Origin: an uncultured Nitrososphaerota archaeon
Lineage (GTDB): Archaea > Korarchaeota > Korarchaeia > Korarchaeales > Korarchaeaceae
DNA length: 13,439 bases
NCBI GenBank assembly: GCA_964480775.1
Contig: CAYZRF010000034.1
Location: forward strand, 1-13,439
Direction: 5' to 3'
Position numbers and translations under genes: made by a program. Positions 1 to 12,254 of the stretch are shown here, piece after piece; the first letter of the stretch is position 1; each line of letters opens with the position of its first letter. The notes below the pieces were generated by a model. It saw only the letters and a list, made by a program, of their open reading frames with translations. It was not told the origin of the DNA and did not search any database.

Positions 1-675
1 CTCATAAATGACGAATTCATACTTTCCAAATCCTAGAGGCCTTCCTCTCATCTTAATTATTTCCATCATCCTTTTTGGAGGACCAATGGAGGTTTCCGTC
101 AATTCTAATTTAATTAACGCATCCGTAATGAATTCTTCTACGCCATGTCCAACGGATGTCTCACCTACTGGAAGATCGGCTATTATTATGGCAGTTATTC
201 CCATATCCTTACATATTCTGTATAACGTGTTGTGGAAGAGAGCCCTTACATCCATAGGCATGAAGAGATTTGTGAGAGCCGTTATAGAGTCAATGACAAG
301 CCTTTTTGCACCGATTTCCTGGATTTTCTCCAGCATTTCATCAAGAACGGCCTCTACACTCGCTTTTTCAGACGCAGTAAATGCTTCTATAAAACGAAAG
401 AGCCCTTTAGATTCAAGGATTTCAAAATTCATGCCAAGTTGTGCCATGTACGAATAGAATTCCCTTTTAGATTCTGCAAATGAAACGTAAACTCCAGGCT
501 CCTTGTACTTACTAACCCCTTCATGTATGAATTTCGCTGCAAACGTGGATTTTCCAGTTCCTGGATTTCCTGCAAGTAGAACGATGCTGTTTCTGACAAA
601 ACCTCCATTTGTAATCTGGTCAAATCCTGGAATTCCAGTTGGAACGCTCTCTAGCTTCGAATCACCCACATTCAT
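1..675 (-). CDS. KaiC-like RecA-superfamily ATPase (single-domain archaeal KaiC/RadB-like type); 3' end runs off the window
   Basis: Absent from the ORF track because it has no stop inside the window. Hand translation of the minus strand from ATG (complement of 673-675) gives 225 uninterrupted codons: MNVGDSKLESVPTGIPGFDQITNGGFVRNSIVLLAGNPGTGKSTFAAKFIHEG...AKRLVIDSITAL...GVEEFITDALIKLE...MMEIIKMRGRPLGFGKYEFVIYE. Walker A GNPGTGKST lies at nt 544-570. A Walker B-like RLVIDS is present. The N-terminal TGIPGFDxxxxGG and C-terminal KMRG-x-(F/Y)xI motifs are typical of KaiC-family ATPases. The plus-strand ORFs 8..457, 232..483 and 503..736 are its shadows. Confidence 0.85.
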   Translation of the reverse strand, partial: MNVGDSKLESVPTGIPGFDQITNGGFVRNSIVLLAGNPGTGKSTFAAKFIHEGVSKYKEPGVYVSFAESKREFYSYMAQLGMNFEILESKGLFRFIEAFTASEKASVEAVLDEMLEKIQEIGAKRLVIDSITALTNLFMPMDVRALFHNTLYRICKDMGITAIIIADLPVGETSVGHGVEEFITDALIKLELTETSIGPPKRMMEIIKMRGRPLGFGKYEFVIYE

Positions 676-905: not shown

Positions 906-1898
906 CTAAAAGATTGGAAAGGGAATTTCTGAACCTAAAAGACCTGCCAACTTCTTTTTAAGATCCTCTAAGTCCTTAGCTTCGACCATCTCTATTCCAA
1001 ACGATTTTACAAAGCCCTTTGTCTCTTTTGAGAACTTTTTGGTTGAAGCGAGGACAAACCTCTTTTCTCCTCCTTCTGGCGATCTAGAGACATCTATAAT
1101 TTTTGTTATGAAAGGTGCAACTTCCTCTGGTGAGAGGGCTCCTTTTCCGCCGTAGATATCCACTAAGTATTCCTTCCCATCCTTCATGGCTCTAAGGGAA
1201 AAAGTGTGGGTGACCCCAGACATCCCCTTAACTGATGGCTTAACGGTTACGCTGAAGCCCTTGCTCTTCAGATCATCCGAAAACATTGATGGCTTAGCTA
1301 CAAGCTTAGAAAGCTCATCCAAGGCCTCTGGATTAAGCCTATAGGAATAGAGACCTTTTCTTTTTGCTTCTCTCTCAAGGAACCTATGCCTGTACTTTAT
1401 GCAAATGTACACCATCTCTGTTTGGAAGAAACTTCCACAAGACTTACACCTAAACATGTCTTCAATTAATTTGTATTCTTCCTCAGGCAATTTAAGTAGT
1501 TCCCCGCATTTGGGGCACTTCAAGCTGCCATCCTGCTGAACGAACTTGTCTACGAAGTCTACGTGTCCACATTTAATGTGTTTAATGGCATCTCCTTTCT
1601 CAAGAACTAAAGAACCACAAAAAGGACATGCAGGCTGGCTCATACGAACAGAAGAACCACAACGAGGACATATAACTTGTTCTCCAATCTTTTTCCTTAT
1701 AAGAATTCCTTGCTCTGCCAATTCCTCCAGAATTTTCTCAGAAGGGTCCAATCCTAAAGATTCTAACTCTCGATAGATATATCCTCTATATGGATCAAAT
1801 TCAGGTGTCAATTCATAATTTTGATGATCTAAAAGCCACTCTAGGAATATCCTAATGTCTTCTCTTTTGGAAACAACCGAAGTCAACATGCCAATCAC
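906..1898 (-). CDS. wHTH + multi-Zn-ribbon + alpha/beta C-terminal domain protein, paralog A (function unknown, regulator-like)
   Basis: The ORF begins at GTG (1898). The N-terminal alignment with paralog B (MLTSVVSKREDIRIFLEWLL vs MSTSKLFEREDVRTLLEWLL) favours ATG at 1889. An N-terminal helix-rich wHTH-like segment (ILEELAEQGILIRKK) is followed by CPRC...CPFC, HxxC...CPKC and CKSC...CIKY (nt 1392-1670). A conserved C-terminal domain follows (GVTHTFSLRA...YLVDIYGGKG...APFITKIIDV...FGIEMVEAKDLEDL). Confidence 0.85.
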   Translation of the reverse strand: MIGMLTSVVSKREDIRIFLEWLLDHQNYELTPEFDPYRGYIYRELESLGLDPSEKILEELAEQGILIRKKIGEQVICPRCGSSVRMSQPACPFCGSLVLEKGDAIKHIKCGHVDFVDKFVQQDGSLKCPKCGELLKLPEEEYKLIEDMFRCKSCGSFFQTEMVYICIKYRHRFLEREAKRKGLYSYRLNPEALDELSKLVAKPSMFSDDLKSKGFSVTVKPSVKGMSGVTHTFSLRAMKDGKEYLVDIYGGKGALSPEEVAPFITKIIDVSRSPEGGEKRFVLASTKKFSKETKGFVKSFGIEMVEAKDLEDLKKKLAGLLGSEIPFPIF

Positions 1899-1928
1899 AA
1901 ATGAACCTGTTATTTTTCAGAAACCATA

Positions 1929-1940
1929 TCTTTTAAAAAT
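1929..1940 (-). promoter_or_regulatory. TATA-like box for paralog A (minus-strand ATTTTTAAAAGA)
   Basis: Contains TTTAAAAGA, the same 9-mer found upstream of paralog B. It ends 31 nt upstream of GTG 1898 and 40 nt upstream of ATG 1889. Confidence 0.45.
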
Positions 1941-2040
1941 ATCCTAAAAAATTAGGATCATAATGCCCTGTCCACGTGTACAATCCATTCTTAAACTCAG
2001 AAAACATGTATTTATGACGTACCTACAAGGAATTCAGTTA

Positions 2041-2095
2041 AAGAAAAACGATTCGGCTTCAAACTCTGAGATAAGGATGATGACTCACTAGTCAT
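2041..2095 (-). terminator. Putative terminator after the GT2 gene
   Basis: A 6-bp stem ATGACT/AGTCAT with a 4-nt loop lies at 2080-2095, just after the stop codon (2098-2100). A minus-strand T5 run follows (plus-strand AAAAA at 2044-2048). Archaeal termination typically uses oligo-T. Confidence 0.4.
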
Positions 2096-2097
2096 TA

Positions 2098-3345
2098 TTA
2101 CTTCCAACGAATTTCCCTCTTGAGCAGACCGTCCAAATATCCTTTCAGACGAACCAACCCATGAATAGGCCTGTAAAATAGTATGGCCAGTGGCAAAACG
2201 AAGAGTACCCAAAATTCGCCTCTTTTTGGTGTTAAAATCCATGAAACAATTCCTAGGATGAGTTCGTTGATGAAGTAAAAGGGGATCATCAAGCCGTAAA
2301 CTGCAAAAGTAAGTTCGGGATGAAACGCTAGAAAATAAATTAACCAGATCAACTTCAAGCTAGTTGCCGCAAGATCATAAAAAACCATAGAAGGTACTCC
2401 AAGAAGGCCTGGGGTTCCAAAGAACGGATTGAATAGCAGGTCTCTGTGTTTGATAAGGGTTTCCAACTGCCCCTTTGACCACCTAATCCTCTGATTCATC
2501 CAATCTCTAAATGTCTCGGGGGCTCTTGTCCATGCAACTGCTTGCGGGGAAAACCTGACCCTCATCCTCGTTTTGTGTATTTTCAGTGTAAAATCGAAGT
2601 CTTCTGTTATAGTATCAGCGTCAAACATTCCAGTGGAAGTCAAGACTCTTCTCTTTGCCGCACCGTAGGCCCCAGGGATTATTAGGACGGTTCCTACAAG
2701 GCCATAAAACCTTCTTCCACTCTCCATACTTGTCATATATTCGTAGGCTTGAAGCTTGCACCAGAGAGATTCTCTATTAAGCACCTTAACGTTTCCCGCA
2801 ACGCCTCCTGTGTTAGGAAGCTGAAAGAACTTTACAAGTTCCCATAGGCTACCTCTTTCTATTAGCGTGTCTGCATCCATCACGACAACTATTTCACCTC
2901 TCGAAAACATCAACCCATAGTTCACTGCATATGCCTTTTTTCCACTTGGAGGCCTCCTCAGCAGCCTTATTTTTCCCTCTTTAGCGTATTTTGATGCTAT
3001 TTCATAGGTTCTGTCTGTTGAACCATCATCGACGACAATGACTTCCTTGTTTGGATACGGATCCTCAAGAACGGACAATATGCACCCCTCTATAGTCTCC
3101 TCCTCGTTATGAGCTGGGATTATCACTGAAATACTAGGAAAATAACTTTTCGTGAAGCCATATGGTCTAATTCTCCTGTATAGTTCGTGAAGGGGGAGCA
3201 CTATAGCCTTCGTAATCGTTCGAGTTAGGTCAAAGAGTATAGGAACAAGCAGGATGGAAATTGCTTGTTTGGGAGCGACTCCTAAGAAATTTAGGTATTC
3301 AAGGACTAAGTTCTTTACAAAATCCAAGACCATATGAATTCTCAC
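2098..3345 (-). CDS. Processive family-2 glycosyltransferase, PgaC/IcaA/NodC-like beta-glycan (probably hexosamine polymer) synthase, membrane-embedded
   Basis: 415 aa. Motifs: IIPAHNEE; VVDDGSTD (DDG at aa 106-108); DAD (nt 2869-2877, verified); TITEDFDF (TED at aa 247-249); PET...QRIRW (nt 2479-2493, verified). Has an N-terminal TM helix and about 3 C-terminal TM helices. Start is GTG 3345, directly after the upstream stop. An alternative ATG at 3333 is preceded by a GTGAG Shine-Dalgarno-like element (SD-like). Confidence 0.9.
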   Translation of the reverse strand: MRIHMVLDFVKNLVLEYLNFLGVAPKQAISILLVPILFDLTRTITKAIVLPLHELYRRIRPYGFTKSYFPSISVIIPAHNEEETIEGCILSVLEDPYPNKEVIVVDDGSTDRTYEIASKYAKEGKIRLLRRPPSGKKAYAVNYGLMFSRGEIVVVMDADTLIERGSLWELVKFFQLPNTGGVAGNVKVLNRESLWCKLQAYEYMTSMESGRRFYGLVGTVLIIPGAYGAAKRRVLTSTGMFDADTITEDFDFTLKIHKTRMRVRFSPQAVAWTRAPETFRDWMNQRIRWSKGQLETLIKHRDLLFNPFFGTPGLLGVPSMVFYDLAATSLKLIWLIYFLAFHPELTFAVYGLMIPFYFINELILGIVSWILTPKRGEFWVLFVLPLAILFYRPIHGLVRLKGYLDGLLKREIRWK

Positions 3346-4128
3346 TTACTCTACGACCCTAACCAAGAATTCGCAGTATGGATCTCCTCTAGAAATGCAC
3401 TTCCTTTCATCAACCGTGCAATCAGAGCCAAACACACCACTAAAGAACCCTGCTATAACCCCCCTGATAAACTGACTTCCCTTCATATCCCTTGAAAGAG
3501 CGCATTCAAAGTTCTTTTCCAGCCTAATTACAGCGATTTCATTGTCCAAGTCTATCTTGAAGGAAGATCCACTAACCCAACCCAAACTCTGAATTATGTC
3601 TAAGGCAGCCTGAATTAGCTCTTTGCCCTCAAGTCCGAGCCTTCTCTTCCATATCTCATAGGCTTCTCTGCCTCCTCCGTAACCCAGGTGATAAATGAAG
3701 ACCCTTCCGCCAGTTCCCCACCTCTTGTATATGTCCGCAAATATGCCAACGAGCCAATCAGCCCTGAAAAGCACCGCTCTCTCATCGAAGAACTCCAGCG
3801 TGGAGTGATGAACGTCTAAGAAAAGGGGCTTATCTAAAGCGGGAGTCCAAGCTATCTTTCTAACTCCTCCTACTTTTGCCAAGTCCGATGCAAGCTCATC
3901 TGGGTTGGTATCACCTAGATCTGCGAAAAAGCACCACCACGTGGCATTTGGCTCCTCGGACTTGTGATGAACCCCGTAAAGTATGTTGATCCCTCTCTTA
4001 GCTATCACATCAGAGACTTTGGCCAACATTCCTGGAATGTCTTCCATCAAAATCGAGACCTCTACCAGCTTCCTACCTTTGAGTTCAACAACCCTCCATA
4101 GAGGCAACTTGTGCATGGGATCAGGCAT
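3346..4128 (-). CDS. ACT domain + V4R (4-vinyl-reductase-type) small-molecule-binding domain protein
   Basis: 260 aa. The ACT-like beta-alpha-beta-beta-alpha-beta segment VEVSILMEDIPGMLAKVSDVIAKRGINILYG spans about nt 3850-4068. The C-terminal V4R pattern spans about nt 3355-3816 and ends in the hallmark C-x6-C-x7-C / GDPYCEF (CTVDERKCISRGDPYCEFLV). The stop TAA (3346-3348) is immediately followed by the GT2 start. Confidence 0.8.
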   Translation of the reverse strand: MPDPMHKLPLWRVVELKGRKLVEVSILMEDIPGMLAKVSDVIAKRGINILYGVHHKSEEPNATWWCFFADLGDTNPDELASDLAKVGGVRKIAWTPALDKPLFLDVHHSTLEFFDERAVLFRADWLVGIFADIYKRWGTGGRVFIYHLGYGGGREAYEIWKRRLGLEGKELIQAALDIIQSLGWVSGSSFKIDLDNEIAVIRLEKNFECALSRDMKGSQFIRGVIAGFFSGVFGSDCTVDERKCISRGDPYCEFLVRVVE

Positions 4129-4182
4129 CTCTTCCGCACTCCCTTTTTCTGATGAAGTTGAAAGGATAAAAAACTATACAAT

Positions 4183-5043
4183 TCAGCCCAGAATGAAGGT
4201 ATAGTATATCAAATTCAGGAAGAACAGTAACAACATGGAAACAGTTACCCTAGATCCTGTTTTGCCGTACATGGTTTCCACACCTCGCCATAACGTTATG
4301 AACTTCATCAACAGAGGGGAGATTAATGCAAACAATATGACGATCGAAAGAGTTAGGGGAGATAACTTTACCAAATGAGAATAAAATTGGAGAATGGGAA
4401 TCCCAAAAAGACCCAAAAATAACAAGTGAGCGAAATCTGCTGTAAGAACAATTTTCGAACCCTTTATGGCCTCAGAGAATTCAGGTTTACTTATTAACAT
4501 GCCAGCAAGCAGACCAATAGCAAGACTTTGTGCTATGAAAAGCATTGTGCCTAACAATAAGCCAAAGAAGCCCCTTAGAAAGGGTAAGTTCTGAAATAAT
4601 GTTGGAGGCAAGAAGAAGTTCGCAATTCTCTCGCCAAGAGCCGATAAAGCTAATCCGAACTCCAAACTGTAGCCCTGTCTTGCAACCAATGACGAAAAAA
4701 CAGAAATTAATGTCCCAACAGCAAACACCTTCCAAACTAGAATTCTAACAGGAGTATTTGATACCTTTTGGAAGAATTCCCTCGCTTTAGCTTCAGAGAA
4801 GGGCGTCAGGATGGAGGTAAATATGCTTGGAGCTCTTAATTGCTCAACTCTTCTATCTTTCTTTTCAACCCTGGGAGGCTCAACAAAAGAAAAAGCTTCT
4901 AAAAGCTCTGCTTGAAGATTAACTACAGCTCTCATGAGATCTATTGCCTCATCTAACTGAGAGTTTGTCGAAGGTGCGCTGACGTATTCCAGCTTGTCTC
5001 TAAGATTCATCATCATCCCTTGGGATATTAGAACCACTTCCAT
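4183..5043 (-). CDS. Multi-pass (about 5 TM) membrane protein with a roughly 100-aa cytoplasmic helical N-terminus, unknown family
   Basis: 286 aa. Hydrophobic segments: VRILVWKVFAVGTLISVFSSLVA, FFGLLLGTMLFIAQSLAIGLLAGMLI, FAHLLFLGLFGIPILQFY, LTLSIVILFALISPLLMKFITL, VTVSMLLLFFLNLIYYTFILG. The topology resembles Yip1-type proteins, but I cannot verify that. Alternative Met starts lie at aa 10-12. Confidence 0.75.
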   Translation of the reverse strand: MEVVLISQGMMMNLRDKLEYVSAPSTNSQLDEAIDLMRAVVNLQAELLEAFSFVEPPRVEKKDRRVEQLRAPSIFTSILTPFSEAKAREFFQKVSNTPVRILVWKVFAVGTLISVFSSLVARQGYSLEFGLALSALGERIANFFLPPTLFQNLPFLRGFFGLLLGTMLFIAQSLAIGLLAGMLISKPEFSEAIKGSKIVLTADFAHLLFLGLFGIPILQFYSHLVKLSPLTLSIVILFALISPLLMKFITLWRGVETMYGKTGSRVTVSMLLLFFLNLIYYTFILG

Positions 5044-5139
5044 ATTATAAAAGTATGCAACTAGAAACTGTTCTTGATTATATCAATGACAAAGAGTGCA
5101 TCATCTATGGCAATCAAAACCACGCAACATAATAGAAAC

Positions 5140-6441
5140 TTAAGCGTATTCTAGCTTGCTTTGTATTTTCTCCTTTACATCTCTTATTTTCCTCAGTAAT
5201 GGGATAAATCTCTCTCCTCCTTCTTTCTTAGTCAAGCTCATAGCTAACATCTCCATTTGCTCTACAACATTAAGAAGACTCTTGTAAAATTCAGGACCAG
5301 GCTCAACAGCCTTATCGGCCATCTTTTCTTCGATTTCTCTTATCTTTTTGAAACTTGCAGCTAACTCTCGATGTTCTCTAGGTAGGACTTCTTCTATGTC
5401 AACTTCTGGAGCCGAAACTCTCCTTGTTTCTGGGACAAGAGCTTTAGTTTCTACGGGAACTGGGAGATGAATCTCAGATTCTATATGATCCGCAAGTCTT
5501 TTCTTCAGATCGTTAATATCTCCAGCCTCGATAATCTCTATACCAAAGGATTTGGCAATGTTCTTTGCATCATCTGAAACTCTTTGCGTCGAAGCTAAAA
5601 TGTATCTTCTTTGTCCCTCTTTTCCAGGCATCCCTGAAAGATCTATAACTTTTGTTATGAAAGGAGCTACGTTTTCCGAAGAAAGAATACCTTTTCCGCC
5701 ATATATGTCTACTAAATACTCAGTTCCGTTCTTTTTAGCCCTCAACGAGAAAGTATGCGTAACTCCAGATTTACCTCTCACTGAAGGCTTTCCTACGACC
5801 TTAAATCCTCTATTTTCCAGCTCTCCTGAGAACATTGATGGCCAGAAAATCAGCTCAGATAGTTTTCTTAATGCGTCGGGTTTTATTTTGTAGGAGTAAA
5901 GGGTCTTCATCTTTCCTTCTTTTTCCTTGAACTTATGATGACATTTAACACAGAGATATACTTTCTCGGGTGCTTCAAAGAAGTTGCCGCAAGATTTACA
6001 CTTGAAAATATCTCCAAGTCTTCTATAATCCTTACCAATCAGTCTAAGAGTCTTCCCACAACTTGGACATTTGAGGCTGCCGTCTGGCTGTAGGAACTCT
6101 TCCTCAAAACCAACGTAACCGCAGCCATAGTGCTCGATAACTTCTCCTTTCTGAAGATTGGAAGAACCACAATACGAACATGCTTGCTGGGTTATGTGAA
6201 GGGGGGATTCACACTTCGGACATACCAAGTATTCTCCTACCTTTTCTTTTGTCAGAATTCCTTGTTTCGCAAGTTCTTCTAGGATTTTACCGCTAGGATC
6301 TAATCCTAACAACTCTAATTCAGGGTAAATGTAGCCTCTAGATGGATGCAGTTCAGGTGAGAGTTCCATATCTTGGTTCTCTAGCAGCCATTCGAGTAGT
6401 GTTCTGACATCTTCCCTTTCAAAGAGTTTTGATGTCGACAT
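5140..6441 (-). CDS. wHTH + multi-Zn-ribbon + alpha/beta C-terminal domain protein, paralog B, with an extra C-terminal helical extension
   Basis: 433 aa, colinear with paralog A over about 320 aa. Cys/His ligand set: CPKC...CSYC, HxxC...CPSC, CKSC...CVKC (nt 5941-6222). A 52-aa hand-aligned stretch (KPSV..IDLS) is 42/52 identical to paralog A. The C-terminal roughly 110 aa (nt 5143-5469) has no counterpart in A. Confidence 0.9.
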   Translation of the reverse strand: MSTSKLFEREDVRTLLEWLLENQDMELSPELHPSRGYIYPELELLGLDPSGKILEELAKQGILTKEKVGEYLVCPKCESPLHITQQACSYCGSSNLQKGEVIEHYGCGYVGFEEEFLQPDGSLKCPSCGKTLRLIGKDYRRLGDIFKCKSCGNFFEAPEKVYLCVKCHHKFKEKEGKMKTLYSYKIKPDALRKLSELIFWPSMFSGELENRGFKVVGKPSVRGKSGVTHTFSLRAKKNGTEYLVDIYGGKGILSSENVAPFITKVIDLSGMPGKEGQRRYILASTQRVSDDAKNIAKSFGIEIIEAGDINDLKKRLADHIESEIHLPVPVETKALVPETRRVSAPEVDIEEVLPREHRELAASFKKIREIEEKMADKAVEPGPEFYKSLLNVVEQMEMLAMSLTKKEGGERFIPLLRKIRDVKEKIQSKLEYA

Positions 6442-6605: not shown

Positions 6606-8186
6606 TTGATCATGAAAAGAGAAACAGAGGAAGGCAAAATAGAGTACAAGCTTAAGCTAAACGCACAAACAGAGGAAAGATTGCAAAAACTGGCAACACA
6701 ACTTGCTTACAGGTTAGGTGAAGGCGGTGGGGAGGCCTTTTACGAGCTTGGAGTCTCTGATGATGGAGAACCGCTTGGTTTGACTGAAGAAGAGGCAAGG
6801 GAATCGTTTAAAATTATGGAACAAATAAGTAAGACGGTAGGAGCTTCCTTTATAGTCGTTAGAAAGGAAAAAGCGAAGAGAGGTTATGTGTATGAACTTC
6901 TTGTGAGGAAAACAGTTGATTCTCCACCTATTCAAATATCTGTAGCGCTTCTGGGAAACGTAGATGCAGGAAAATCCACCCTAAAGGGCGTACTAGTTTA
7001 CGGAACCCTTGATGACGGCGATGGAAAGGCAATGAGCTTGGTTGCCAAGTACTTACACGAGCTAAAGTTCAGAAGGTCATCATCCGTTTCAGTTCATGTC
7101 CTTGGTTTCAATGAAATGGGAGAGTCCATCAATGACTCCCTTAGAACTTACGATGAGGCCAAGGTGTACTTAGAAGGGTCAAAAATAGTCACTCTGATAG
7201 ACCTTGCTGGTCATGAGAGGTATTTGAAAACAACGATGAGAGGAGTTCTTGGACATCTCCCTGACTACACTTGCATGGTAGTTGGTGCCAACGCGGGTCC
7301 AATAGGCACGTTTAGAGAACACTTAGGAATGACCGTTGCCCTTGGAATACCTTGCTTCGTTGTGATCACAAAGGTAGATATGGCTCCCCAAGCAGTGCTG
7401 GAGAGAAACTTGGAAAAGGTTATACACCTCTTAAAGTTACCAGGAATTAACAAAATACCCTTCATAATAAGAAGCAAGAATGATGCAGCTATTGCAGCAA
7501 GACACATGCCCCATGGAAGGGTAGCCCCCATATTCCTTATCTCAAATGTCACTGGTCAGGGCTTGCAGGAACTCAAAGCATTTCTCAACATGCTCCCACC
7601 AAAAATAGACTGGCACGAGAGGGCTAAAGGAAAGTTCCTGTGCTACATCGATGAGAAGTTTGATGTGTCTGGAGTTGGGCTTGTGGTTGCGGGTTTGGTG
7701 GAGGAGGGAACCGTTAAGAGCGGAGACCGAGTGCTTCTTGGACCCTTTGATGATGGATCCTTCAGAACTGTAAGGGTTAAGTCAATAGAGGTGAACAGAG
7801 TCCGAGTTGAAAGGGCTGAGGCAGGACAAATCGCAGCTTACGCAATTACAAACGCCAAGTATGAGGAAATAAGAAGAGGAATGGTATTGCTAGATCTTGA
7901 TGCCACGCCTGTAGCTGTAAGAAAGTTTAGGGCTCACATAAGGGTTCTGCATCACCCAACAACCATAAAAGTCGGATATGAGCCAGTTATTCAGATGAAA
8001 ACGATAAGGCAAGCCGCAAGACTCGTAAATACCACGAATAAATTCCTGAGAAGCGGAGACACCGATATGGTTGAGTTTTACTTCATTCTTAGACCAGAGT
8101 ATGTCAGGAAGGGAGATGTATTCTTCTTCAGGGAAGGTAGGACAAAGGGTATAGGAACGGTGGTTGGGATTAGTGGAACATCCTAA
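6606..8186 (+). CDS. GTPBP1-like (GP-1 family) translational-type GTPase, EF-1alpha/SelB-related
   Basis: 526 aa. G1 GNVDAGKST (nt 6954-6980, verified), G3 DLAGHERY, G4 TKVD (T instead of N, as I recall for GTPBP1 proteins). Has a roughly 110-aa N-terminal extension, then beta-barrel domains II/III (GVGLVVAGLVEEGTVKSGDRVLLGP...). The track start is TTG 6606; ATG 6612 is equally or more likely. Confidence 0.85.
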   Translation: MIMKRETEEGKIEYKLKLNAQTEERLQKLATQLAYRLGEGGGEAFYELGVSDDGEPLGLTEEEARESFKIMEQISKTVGASFIVVRKEKAKRGYVYELLVRKTVDSPPIQISVALLGNVDAGKSTLKGVLVYGTLDDGDGKAMSLVAKYLHELKFRRSSSVSVHVLGFNEMGESINDSLRTYDEAKVYLEGSKIVTLIDLAGHERYLKTTMRGVLGHLPDYTCMVVGANAGPIGTFREHLGMTVALGIPCFVVITKVDMAPQAVLERNLEKVIHLLKLPGINKIPFIIRSKNDAAIAARHMPHGRVAPIFLISNVTGQGLQELKAFLNMLPPKIDWHERAKGKFLCYIDEKFDVSGVGLVVAGLVEEGTVKSGDRVLLGPFDDGSFRTVRVKSIEVNRVRVERAEAGQIAAYAITNAKYEEIRRGMVLLDLDATPVAVRKFRAHIRVLHHPTTIKVGYEPVIQMKTIRQAARLVNTTNKFLRSGDTDMVEFYFILRPEYVRKGDVFFFREGRTKGIGTVVGISGTS

Positions 8187-8869: not shown

Positions 8870-9109
8870 ATGACTAGGGTGAAGGTCACTAGAAGCTATC
8901 AGGTCACGATACCCAAAGAGATAAGGGAAAGAATAGGGCTAAAGGAAGGAGATTACTTACAAGTTGAAGTTGACGACGAAGGAAGGATAATAATGTCTAA
9001 ATCTAGGAGAGAAAGGAGGACTTTGAGAGCTGGTAGGCCTCTTAAGCCTGATGAGATAGAGAAGCTCATAGAGCTTGGAATCAAGAGAAGTCTCATTTCT
9101 GGTGAGTAA
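8870..9109 (+). CDS. vapB: AbrB/SpoVT-fold antitoxin (VapB-like)
   Basis: 79 aa. VKVTRSYQVTIPKEIRERIGLKEGDYLQVEVDDEGRIIM is a classic swapped-hairpin AbrB/MazE N-terminal motif. The basic/acidic C-terminal tail, small size and overlap with a PIN gene fit an antitoxin. Confidence 0.85.
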   Translation: MTRVKVTRSYQVTIPKEIRERIGLKEGDYLQVEVDDEGRIIMSKSRRERRTLRAGRPLKPDEIEKLIELGIKRSLISGE

Positions 9110-9542
9110 ATTGGCATCAGCAGTGTTGGATACCAACGTCATCGTGTACGACACATTCGAGGACTCGTTGTATCACGAGATGGCCAGAGAACTCCTGGAC
9201 TCCCTCGACGTGTGGGTCCTACCTCTGATAGTGCTATACGAGTATGTCTGGTTGATGAAAGAGCTAGGCGTTAACCTTGAGGACATCTCAGCTAAAGTGT
9301 ATGAGTACGCTTGGGACCCTAAGGCTAGGGTTACTTCAGGAGGAAAGGACGCAGTTAGGTGGGCTTTAGCGGATCTCATGGAGGAGAGGCTATCCGCATC
9401 TAGGTTCAACGATAAGGTGGTATTGTCAGTAGCCGAGAGGGAAGGAATTCCTCTAGCTACTTTTGACAGGGGGCTGAGAGTTCAGGCTCATAGGGTAAAC
9501 GTAGAGGTGCTCCCTATCTCTATTGATGTGCATGAATCTTGA
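9102..9542 (+). CDS. vapC: PIN-domain ribonuclease toxin (VapC-like)
   Basis: The track ORF starts at 9075. The likely start is GTG 9102, overlapping the vapB stop by 8 nt (GTGAGTAA), or TTG 9111. Conserved PIN acidic residues in expected contexts: VLDTNVIVY, LYEYVW, FNDKVV, LATFD. Confidence 0.85.
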   Translation: MSKLASAVLDTNVIVYDTFEDSLYHEMARELLDSLDVWVLPLIVLYEYVWLMKELGVNLEDISAKVYEYAWDPKARVTSGGKDAVRWALADLMEERLSASRFNDKVVLSVAEREGIPLATFDRGLRVQAHRVNVEVLPISIDVHES

Positions 9543-9917: not shown

Positions 9918-12254
9918 ATGAACTCTTATCGGTGCATTGTTCTCCTAATTGTGCTTTTCTTAACTAATATTACTCCTTTGTTCTCCCAACGAGAAGTTTC
10001 CAGCTTTTTGGAATTATATGGAGTAAGAGCAGTTCAACTGGACTTGGACTTAATTTATGACCCAAACCAGGTCGAATTTAGAAGGAGAGTTGATCTTGTA
10101 CTTGATAGACTGATTTCGATAGGTGCTAATTTAGTTCTCCTTCAAGTTTTTCAAGATCCAGATGGAGACGGTTCCGCCAACGGAGTCTACTTCAAGACAG
10201 ACATGGCTCCAAGTTTAGATGCTTTAGGAACATTCTTGGAGGAGGCAAGAGAGAGGAACATCAAGATTTTTGCGTGGATGACCACACTAACATGTTCTTG
10301 GGTATTAGAGGAACATCCAAACTGGGAAATCTTGTCCTTCGATCCCGATTCAGGGAGTTATGTCACGGGGAAGTACTGGTACAGGAGAGCTTCACCATTC
10401 TGTGACGACTTTGTGGCATATTTAAGGGATCTTTATGCTGATCTTGCCTCCTACCCGCTAGACGGAATTCTTCTACAAGATGATCTCTACTTAGGCGAGT
10501 GGGAAGATTTCAGCGAATGGGCTAGATCAGCATTTAGGAAAGAATACGGATTAGAACTGACACCCTCGTTGTTAAAGATGGGAGGTTGGAGGGAAAAATG
10601 GATTAATTGGAAAGCAGAGCGACTTATGCACATTGCAAGGATTTTAGAGGAAACAGTTAAGGAAAGGAGACCTGAAGCCATCTTTTCAATCGATGTGTAC
10701 TCTGATGTGCTCATATATGATGACGCCTCTTCTTGGCTAGCTCAAGACAAGAACCTCCTTGCAAATTCGGATTTTTTCATGGTGATAATGGCCTATCCAT
10801 TTTTGGAAAATGCAGATAATCCAGAAGAGTGGATGGAAGCTGTAGCAAGGGAAGCCGTTACTGTATTTGGAAAAGGAAAAACTCTGATAAAGGTACAATC
10901 TTACGACTGGAAAAATGAATTGTGGATCCCTTCTAATGTTTTTAGTTCGATCATAGAAGCAGCATATGAAGGAGGAGCCGTAAATGTGGGGTACTATCCT
11001 GAAGACCCGTTTTCAGGAATTCCAGACGCTCAAACAGTTAGGAATGCCTTCTTAGTTTATGGAACAACTCCATCAAGACCCGTTCATGTTCTTATGCTTT
11101 CTAACTCAGTAGATTTGCCAGCGGCAAGAAAACTTGCTGTCAACATCGGAAGGCACGGAGTATTGGTGACATTAACTAACGAAAATGTAAACATTTCTCG
11201 AGGTGCTATGATAATTCTTGGGGGTCCTAAAGCATATGAGGGCATAGGAGATATTTCAAACGGTTATTTGCCAAAACCCCAGGCTGAAAAGCTTATTTCA
11301 GAGGAAGATTCGATGGTTTCGATTGTTAGCAGGAAGAATGAAATAGACTATGTGATAATAGCCGGACACACAAGAATAGAAACTGCTAGAGCAGCGTCAG
11401 AATTTCCTGCGCCATGGATAAGGCTTACAGCCCTTTCTGACTACATTCTGGGTTGTAGACCAGTGAGACTAGGACCTGTAGTTTATTCTTATCAGGGGGT
11501 TACTTTCGAAGACCTGAGCAAGGTAAACGCAACAATTCTCGTCGTAGATCCAGATGATTCGAGATTAAGCAAGGAGGACACAGTTAAACTCCACGAGCAG
11601 GGGAAGACTGTTATAGCATATCTAAGCATAGGGCAAGCAGAATCTTACAGATCATACTGGGACGATAAATGGGAACTGGATACACCTCGCTGGCTGGGAA
11701 CAGAGGATCTGGAGTGGCCTGAGAACTATTGGGTTAGGTACTGGGACCAAGAATGGAAGAATATTGTGTTTACTTGCTTGCATGAAATTATCGAAAAAGG
11801 CTTCGATGGAGTCTTATTGGACAGAGTTGACGCATACGAGTATTGGGAGGACAAAGGCGTGCTAGACGCCAAACAGAAGATGCTGAATTTCGTTTTAGAA
11901 ATATCAGCGAGGGCAAAGCAAGAGAGATGTTTCCTCATAATTCCTCAAAACGCTGAGGAGCTGATAGAGGACCATCATTACTTGGAAGCGATAGATGGGG
12001 TAAGTTCTGAAGATGTCTGGACCATTGGAAACGATGAGAGACCTCAAGATGAGGTTGAACTCAGGTTGAACACACTAGATAGAATTATCTCACGTGGAAA
12101 ATTAGTATTGGTCTTAGATTATCCTTCTTCGGCTAAAATGAGGGAGATATTCTGCTTAAAGGCGAGGGAAAGGGGATATATTCCATATTCCTCCTCAATC
12201 GACCTTTCAGGCATAAATTACGATTTCCTAAATAGGTGCTGGGAAGCCCCCTAA
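9918..12254 (+). CDS. Secreted two-module polysaccharide-processing protein: PgaB-C-terminal-like (GHL13) domain + alpha/beta linker domain + GH114/TM1410-MJ1477-like domain
   Basis: 778 aa. Signal peptide: MNSYRCIVLLIVLFLTNITPLFSQ. Module 1 (about nt 10020-11012): AVQLDLDLIYDP...LISIGANLVLLQVFQDPDGDGSANGVYFKT...IKIFAWM...LDGILLQDDLYL, which matches my memory of the PgaB C-terminal domain (VDLDYVYDPD, LQAFADPDGDG, AWMP, DGILFHDD). Module 3 (about nt 11460-12212): ILVVDPDD...VIAYLSIGQAESYRSYW...NYWVRYWDQEWKNI...GFDGVLLDRVDAYEYW, the GH114/TM1410-type signature. The middle domain (about nt 11070-11417) is unassigned. No C-terminal anchor. Confidence 0.85.
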   Translation: MNSYRCIVLLIVLFLTNITPLFSQREVSSFLELYGVRAVQLDLDLIYDPNQVEFRRRVDLVLDRLISIGANLVLLQVFQDPDGDGSANGVYFKTDMAPSLDALGTFLEEARERNIKIFAWMTTLTCSWVLEEHPNWEILSFDPDSGSYVTGKYWYRRASPFCDDFVAYLRDLYADLASYPLDGILLQDDLYLGEWEDFSEWARSAFRKEYGLELTPSLLKMGGWREKWINWKAERLMHIARILEETVKERRPEAIFSIDVYSDVLIYDDASSWLAQDKNLLANSDFFMVIMAYPFLENADNPEEWMEAVAREAVTVFGKGKTLIKVQSYDWKNELWIPSNVFSSIIEAAYEGGAVNVGYYPEDPFSGIPDAQTVRNAFLVYGTTPSRPVHVLMLSNSVDLPAARKLAVNIGRHGVLVTLTNENVNISRGAMIILGGPKAYEGIGDISNGYLPKPQAEKLISEEDSMVSIVSRKNEIDYVIIAGHTRIETARAASEFPAPWIRLTALSDYILGCRPVRLGPVVYSYQGVTFEDLSKVNATILVVDPDDSRLSKEDTVKLHEQGKTVIAYLSIGQAESYRSYWDDKWELDTPRWLGTEDLEWPENYWVRYWDQEWKNIVFTCLHEIIEKGFDGVLLDRVDAYEYWEDKGVLDAKQKMLNFVLEISARAKQERCFLIIPQNAEELIEDHHYLEAIDGVSSEDVWTIGNDERPQDEVELRLNTLDRIISRGKLVLVLDYPSSAKMREIFCLKARERGYIPYSSSIDLSGINYDFLNRCWEAP

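Follow-up and report, generated by a model that had tools for sequence, protein, structure and literature searches.

The 13,439-nucleotide (nt) contig CAYZRF010000034.1 (assembly GCA_964480775.1), hereafter the window, comes from an uncultured Nitrososphaerota archaeon assigned to the Korarchaeota. It carries two paralogous genes, A and B, that bracket an operon encoding a family-2 glycosyltransferase (GT2), the putative synthase. The minus strand reads, in order: B; a 286-residue membrane protein; an ACT-V4R protein; GT2; A; and the start of a KaiC-like ATPase gene. Immediately upstream of the synthase operon, read from its strand and separated from it by 96 nt, lies B. Both paralogs encode cytoplasmic, non-catalytic proteins of a signaling-associated family, in which a triple zinc-ribbon module, TackOD1, is followed by a dead nuclease domain of the Mrr type. 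The central features are as follows.

5140 to 6441, minus strand: paralog B, 433 residues; TackOD1, inactive Mrr-like domain and helical tail
5884 to 6417, minus strand: TackOD1 region of B, residues 9-186; five CxxC motifs plus HxxC, three predicted zinc sites
5476 to 5844, minus strand: inactive Mrr-like domain of B, residues 200-322; signature GKSGVTHTFS ... LVDIY ... TKVID ... IIEA
5146 to 5397, minus strand: B-specific C-terminal three-helix tail, residues 349-432, without a family match
906 to 1898, minus strand: paralog A, 330 residues from the GTG at 1898; TackOD1 and inactive Mrr-like domain
1335 to 1862, minus strand: TackOD1 region of A, residues 13-188 of the open reading frame; four CxxC motifs, HxxC and a lone Cys
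924 to 1292, minus strand: inactive Mrr-like domain of A, placed by profile against PDB entry 1y88, by hhalign and by alignment to the modelled B domain
1 to 675, minus strand: KaiC-like double-domain ATPase, N-terminal 225 residues, running off the window; identified by translation and tblastn

A first-pass annotation, made from the sequence alone, had described A and B as colinear products of an old duplication, and this description stands. BLASTP aligns the pair from residue 1 to about residue 328, with 188 of 328 positions identical (57%), 78% positives and two gaps (E = 6e-139). The shared N-terminal helix (REDIRIFLEWLL in one, REDVRTLLEWLL in the other) is present, as is the segment that had been likened to a winged helix-turn-helix (wHTH), ILEELAEQGIL or ILEELAKQGIL; a recount of the KPSV...IDxS stretch returns exactly the reported 42 identities in 52 positions. 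Nonsynonymous divergence (dN) between the paralogs is 0.29. The DNA is just 63% identical and synonymous sites (dS) are saturated, so the duplication is old. Both copies nonetheless look functional, judged from their coding sequences: neither contains an internal stop, and A compared with its orthologue on contig L001 gives dN/dS of 0.075. For B and its L004 orthologue dN is 0.155, with dS saturated. The true start of A is probably the ATG at 1889 (MLTS..., 327 residues) rather than the GTG at 1898, since orthologues P0004 and P0005 begin at MLTS. The extra C-terminal tail of B, about 100 residues long and helical, is common to B-type orthologues. No NCBIfam model matches A or B.

TackOD1 was defined by Galperin et al. 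(2018; PMC5847659) as an output domain of archaeal response regulators, with a function described as "obscure". Those authors recorded it in Thaumarchaeota, Korarchaeota, Bathyarchaeota, Odinarchaeota and some bacteria; noted 11 Cys residues arranged as five CxxC and one HxxC; and included stand-alone forms among its architectures. A and B are new members of this known, uncharacterized family (arCOG06883-like). Against the Pfam model (PF18551; 188 positions, nearly all covered by both proteins) A scores 91.5 bits (6.4e-26) and B 132.8 bits (1.4e-38), far above the gathering cut-off of 32 bits, which bears out the initial suggestion of a TackOD1 match. The label "uncharacterised" also holds: the sole paper found that uses the name TackOD1 is the one that calls its function obscure (PMC5847659). 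The likeness extends over the N-terminal 180 or so residues and includes the five CxxC plus HxxC and the 11 Cys of B, the stand-alone architecture, and a distribution that fits the TACK and Korarchaeota range. The differences are that both proteins lack a receiver (REC) domain, that A has one Cys fewer, and that the C-terminal nuclease-fold domain is not mentioned in PMC5847659. A Pfam scan found no REC domain in either paralog.

In the N-terminal 190 or so residues, a short, acidic, helical stretch leads into three zinc ribbons. The ligand motifs of B are CPKC74, CSYC88, HYGC104, CPSC125, CKSC148 and CVKC164. Three ligand pairs had been claimed for both proteins; B indeed has all six motifs, whereas A and its orthologues have five, followed by CIKY in place of CVKC, so that the third zinc site of A has three Cys and is perhaps completed by a His. 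The 11-Cys pattern of TackOD1 is therefore complete in B and partial in A. The AlphaFold2 model of B residues 1-190 has a mean predicted local distance difference test (pLDDT) score of 94 and consists almost entirely of β-hairpins, with the ligand pairs at the turns; Foldseek found no significant structural neighbor for the TackOD1 model in the PDB (best E = 0.036). Sequence matches of the TackOD1 profile to PDB entries (C2H2 fingers, the RNF4 RING, ribosomal zinc ribbons) are generic to Cys-rich proteins and were treated as compositional. The proposed N-terminal wHTH is no more than a candidate: the order of secondary structures in the first 62 residues, H-b-b-H-H-b-b, fits such a fold, but no HTH profile or structure matches significantly.

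The C-terminal domain had been compared with Mrr-type nucleases, and here the evidence is ample. Direct Pfam matches to Mrr_cat (PF04471) are weak: B residues 187-335 reach 13.6 bits (E = 0.075), below the cut-off of 21, and A has no match. However, a profile built from seven close homologues matches PDB entry 1y88 (AF1548) with E = 2.9e-5. The full-length AlphaFold2 model of B has a mean pLDDT of 85; blocks of the nuclease-fold domain mostly score 87-93, with 69 over the loop at 271-280, and the modelled topology is α-β-β-β-α-β-α-β. The top Foldseek matches in the PDB are all PD-(D/E)xK nucleases, with 1y88 again the best (E = 3.7e-6), followed by EndoMS, Cdn1, VC1899, R2 endonuclease, Can2, Bax1, MspJI and Hjc. 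Finally, hhalign compares the domain with segments from eight Mrr_cat-positive relatives at 98.5% probability (E = 2.5e-15). On the strength of these profile and model comparisons the assignment of a restriction-endonuclease fold is solid. The likeness to Mrr_cat and AF1548 thus comprises the α-β-β-β-α-β core, the agreement of profile and Foldseek on 1y88, and close relatives of the A/B domain that reach PF04471 at 9e-17. The difference is the loss of the catalytic Asp and Lys, together with a distinct signature, GxSGxxH / K..D / E.

That loss is plain from the alignment: the EID ... IECK of AF1548 corresponds to TFS ... VDIY in both A and B, so Asp has become Ser and ExK has become DxY, as the first-pass annotation had noted. 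Across 175 copies of the domain the position of the catalytic Lys is never Lys (175 of 175). The first catalytic Asp, Ser in A and B, is retained in 29 of 68 TackOD1-linked copies and is non-acidic in the other 39. A different set of polar residues is near-invariant among the 175 copies: G-x-S-G-x-x-H, K264, D267 and E305 (B numbering). Residue conservation therefore marks the C-terminal domain as a dead nuclease with a predicted pocket, conserved apart from the catalytic triad. NA-iREase1 (PF22722) offers a precedent, in that a nuclease fold is kept there as a non-catalytic module, and eight relatives of the A/B domain match it. Neither A nor B does, however, and the locus has no NACHT gene: the NACHT/STAND NTPase and conflict-system context of NA-iREase1 is lacking.

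Searched exhaustively by profile, 1.84 billion representative proteins yielded 410 relatives of the C-terminal domain at E ≤ 0.001; the architecture counts that follow rest on the best 147 of these. TackOD1 precedes the nuclease-fold domain in 92 of the 147, so the architecture cannot be called unusual, as it had been. Most TackOD1-carrying relatives are 300-370 residues long with the same layout as A. Mrr_cat matches 35 of the 147 (best 9e-17) and NA-iREase1 matches 8. The domain also occurs alone and in tandem; REC-TackOD1 proteins with one to three Mrr-like domains were found, along with a TackOD1-Mrr-like-rubrerythrin fusion, two fusions in which two copies of the inactive restriction endonuclease (iREase) domain precede MshEN and T2SSE, the PilB-type pilus ATPase (P0022 and P0076), and one iREase-KaiC fusion (P0144). 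The words "endonuclease" and "Mrr" are both absent from the TackOD1-defining paper and its supplements (PMC5847659), so the second domain seems undescribed there. Its type example is a 318-residue REC-TackOD1 protein (PMC5847659), too short to hold a nuclease-fold domain.

Seven distant members, located by exact sequence, allow a view of the family beyond this locus. Four of the seven adjoin genes for T2SSF, T2SSE, prepilin peptidase or pilin (loci L006, L009, L011 and L012); the other three have no type IV pilus genes beside them. The association with GT2 genes that had been expected elsewhere in the family thus did not materialize; distant members go with type IV pilus genes instead. Genes for T2SSE, T2SSF and pilin were found neither in the window nor in 20 kb of orthologous loci. 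In published work the arCOG06883 proteins, described as having a double zinc ribbon, belong to the type IV pilus loci of Thaumarchaeota, where they are counted among the cytoplasmic proteins that may have an auxiliary part, structural or regulatory; this accords with the pilus-gene neighbors of the distant members. A and B differ from this precedent in standing beside a KaiC-like ATPase and an exopolysaccharide operon, with no type IV pilus genes nearby. KaiC-like ATPases, for their part, have been proposed as archaeal signaling hubs, and the KaiC-like protein CirA lowers transcription of archaellum genes in Haloferax by an unknown route. The common theme of the TackOD1, KaiC, type IV pilus and exopolysaccharide contexts is cell-surface adhesion. 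The parallel with CirA and ArlH is a KaiC-like ATPase that lies beside surface-structure genes and affects their expression through an unknown DNA-binding partner; the differences are that the Haloferax case concerns archaella and has no known TackOD1 protein, and that the link here consists of adjacency and fusion.

Related contigs, from Korarchaeota/Thermoproteota metagenome-assembled genomes and from hydrothermal-vent and Guaymas Basin sediment metagenomes, show the locus in four forms.

Form i: B, operon, A, KaiC; the window, L018 and L019, the latter two 96.5-96.8% identical to the window
Form ii: B remnant, frameshifted GT2, intact A and KaiC; L001
Form iii: B, operon, KaiC, without A; L004
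Form iv: a single 328-residue gene followed by KaiC, without the operon; L007 and L014-L017

The gene of form iv (L007:5232-6215) is a clean B/A chimera, about 99% identical to B until residue 268 or so and about 97% identical to A thereafter. The crossover falls in a stretch of 15+8 nt common to the two genes.

5642 to 5664, minus strand: crossover stretch in B, CCTTTCATAACAAA[G/A]TTATAGAT, encoding APFITK(V/I)ID
1093 to 1115, minus strand: crossover stretch in A, the same shared sequence

A and B are in direct orientation, and the 4549 nt between the two crossover sites are missing from the chimera haplotype, which matches the window at 94-95% identity in its flanks. The event was a deletion, since the two halves of the chimera each correspond to one present-day copy, and present-day A and B are unlike at about 37% of DNA positions. 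An assembly artefact was considered and ruled out: at the junction A and B have no exact run in common longer than 15 nt, which makes such an artefact unlikely, and the chimera occurs on seven contigs from at least four samples. It is thus recombination between A and B that removed the operon from sister populations.

These forms change the reading of the bracketing itself. It had been taken to suggest a specific regulatory tie to the synthase, but this claim is weakened because the arrangement B-operon-A is present in one of the four locus forms, and the neighbors that the TackOD1 gene keeps across all related haplotypes, the operon-less one included, are the KaiC-like ATPase and a GTPase. 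Across the four haplotype classes, an intact GT2 is never found without an intact B. L001, a relative from a vent metagenome, has a B remnant (L001:6447-6761) that is an in-frame joining of residues 1-43 to about 372-433, with a stop, and a GT2 gene (L001:8556-9802) interrupted by a frameshift within an A6 run; the operon may truly be decaying there, or the frameshift may be a sequencing error.

The genes within and around the bracket are these.

4183 to 5043, minus strand: membrane protein of 286 residues without a family match; first bracketed gene
3346 to 4128, minus strand: ACT + V4R small-molecule-binding protein; second bracketed gene
2098 to 3345, minus strand: GT2; third bracketed gene, nearest to PgaC/IcaA-type poly-N-acetylglucosamine synthases, below the equivalog cut-off
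6606 to 8186, plus strand: EF-Tu/EF-1alpha-like GTPase, divergent from B; the constant upstream neighbor
9075 to 9542, plus strand: PIN-domain toxin gene; orthologous region L014:3895-4567
9918 to 12254, plus strand: secreted GHL13 (PgaB C-terminal-like) + GH114 hydrolase, kept even in the deletion haplotype

From its gene content, the bracketed operon looks like an exopolysaccharide system of the poly-N-acetylglucosamine type. The combination of GT2 with the GHL13-GH114 hydrolase suggests a system for a polymer resembling poly-N-acetylglucosamine or galactosaminogalactan in a Korarchaeota-type archaeon. The resemblance to PgaABCD and Ica lies in a GT2 nearest to PgaC/IcaA and a PgaB C-terminal-like hydrolase close by. 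In contrast to those systems, the host is an archaeon, the scores fall far short of the equivalog cut-offs, PgaD, PgaA and a deacetylase domain are all lacking, and GT2 is accompanied by two unusual partners, the ACT-V4R protein and the membrane protein without a family. In the chimera haplotype the GHL13-GH114 gene is retained, intact in L014 and as its first 250 residues at the end of L007. Related contigs carry a MazE/AbrB-type antitoxin gene directly upstream of the PIN toxin gene. A defence role for the locus was rejected, PADLOC having given noise-level matches only.

The divergent GTPase has an N-terminal extension of about 100 residues and is always divergent from the TackOD1 gene; among relatives it is 94-99% identical, compared with 46-91% for the neighboring genes. 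The full-length orthologue of the KaiC-like ATPase in the window matches Pfam KaiC at 6.2e-97. In every haplotype the KaiC-like gene is overlapped at its 3' end by the gene of a 125-residue protein (L001:12588-12965, L018:9689-10066) that matches no family and may be a KaiC partner. Comparison of the spacers yielded TATA-like elements and otherwise only short, probably chance, matches. The spacer upstream of A (2025-2048) holds a 23-24-nt inverted match, 79-83% complementary to the stretches of the two paralogs that encode QGIL (1690-1712 and 6242-6265); this too is probably due to chance, since the corresponding stretch differs in the orthologous L001 spacer.

What might such proteins do? The favored reading, held tentatively at a probability of about 45%, is that A and B are non-catalytic regulators or adaptors that, with KaiC-like ATPases, set cell-surface adhesion functions. 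The TackOD1 and dead-nuclease unit would serve as a signal-output or adaptor module, and A and B would work alongside the KaiC-like ATPase whose gene comes next downstream; this partnership is proposed because the unit is carried on REC domains elsewhere and its dead-nuclease half is fused to hexameric ATPases of the PilB and KaiC types. Together the proteins would set the level of adhesion, through the PgaC-like exopolysaccharide operon here and through type IV pili in other archaea. The dead-nuclease domain may be the docking or sensing part, and the basic zinc-ribbon part the effector, with promoter DNA as its most likely target. B would be the copy tied to the operon, which it heads and whose GT2 is intact only alongside intact B; A, in turn, would belong with KaiC. 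Because the relatives compared are close, unvarying synteny says little by itself, but the KaiC- and PilB-type fusions and the neighborhoods of the seven distant members are independent of it.

Several observations weigh against this reading. KaiC adjacency is seen among close relatives only (75-97% nucleotide identity) and may reflect inherited synteny rather than functional linkage, and the more distant P0006 locus has neither KaiC nor GT2 nearby. B, A and KaiC each have their own TATA-like element in the orthologous spacer alignment, so co-transcription is not required, and neither that alignment nor a repeat finder revealed a shared operator-like motif in the four spacers. L004 has lost one copy without decay of the other genes, so A and B are possibly redundant. 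DNA binding through the N-terminal segment finds little encouragement: its Pfam matches to HTH families are all sub-threshold (GntR 0.036, TBPIP 0.047, HTH_36 0.11); no winged-helix protein appears among the Foldseek matches of the TackOD1 model; and the wHTH-like segment is acidic, with a net charge of -7/-8. TrmB, named in the first-pass annotation as a comparison, gave no Pfam match. The zinc-ribbon part, on the other hand, carries a net charge of +5/+8 and the nuclease-fold part +4/+6.

The closest competitor agrees on the ATPase but dispenses with DNA altogether. A and B would be pure protein-level adaptors. Their dead-nuclease domain would either dock on the KaiC-like ATPase (elsewhere a PilB-type one) or sense a small ligand on its behalf, altering the activity or localization of the ATPase and so exerting post-translational control over polymer or pilus assembly. 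The domain is fused N-terminally to PilB-type ATPases, beside the cyclic di-GMP-binding MshEN, and to KaiC; it occurs in tandem copies, which are commoner in interaction or ligand modules than in DNA readers; its conserved polar pocket is unconnected with catalysis; and no significant HTH accompanies it. However, restriction-endonuclease folds are scaffolds for DNA binding, both the zinc-ribbon part and the nuclease-fold part are net basic, the outputs of response regulators are mostly DNA-binding, and docking on the ATPase is deduced from fusions. This alternative seems somewhat unlikely, and the regulatory reading, with promoter DNA as the probable target of the zinc ribbons, is preferred.

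Further from that preference is the proposal that these cytoplasmic zinc proteins are not regulators but accessories, stoichiometric parts of pilus or polysaccharide export complexes. The listing of arCOG06883 as a possible structural component of type IV pilus loci and the members that adjoin T2SSF, T2SSE and pilin genes speak for such a role; yet the gene stays beside KaiC after complete deletion of the synthase operon, it is kept in Nitrososphaerota loci without type IV pilus genes, and its REC fusions indicate signaling. An accessory role is improbable on these grounds. More improbable by far is that the domain is an active nuclease or defence component with a non-canonical site made of H229, D245, K264, D267 and E305. 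The PD-(D/E)xK fold and the near-invariance of K264 and D267 fit it, and in some nuclease families the Lys moves to a helix. Against these stand the Ser at the first Asp position in A and B, with non-acidic residues in 39 of 68 TackOD1-linked copies; the relatives that match a family named "inactive restriction endonuclease"; and neighborhoods composed of housekeeping and surface genes, not defence islands.

A broader synthesis can be drawn, although as a whole it is unlikely. TackOD1 and the dead Mrr-like domain would form one conserved two-part regulatory module across archaea and some bacteria, with the pocket (GxSGxxH ... K..D ... E) docking on, or sensing a ligand for, hexameric ATPases of the KaiC and PilB types. 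Two-component and KaiC signaling would thereby be tied to the choice of adhesive state, pili or exopolysaccharide. The copies in Guaymas Korarchaeota would double as recombination bookends, through which the operon is shed while one intact chimeric regulator is regenerated.

Together, these results do not overturn current ideas; they make an open question testable. Among response-regulator output domains, TackOD1 belongs to the few that are common to several archaeal phyla. Most stand-alone TackOD1 proteins retrieved here carry a previously unrecognized dead Mrr-type domain with a conserved pocket. That TackOD1 has no solved structure makes the locus more valuable, together with the recognition of the second domain and the haplotype series. 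The KaiC- and PilB-type fusions provide a concrete, testable partner for KaiC-like ATPases as archaeal signaling hubs. Moreover, haplotypes with both copies, with one copy and with a chimera constitute a natural genetic series in uncultured Korarchaeota, in which a deletion mediated by paralogs strips a biofilm-type polysaccharide operon in the wild.

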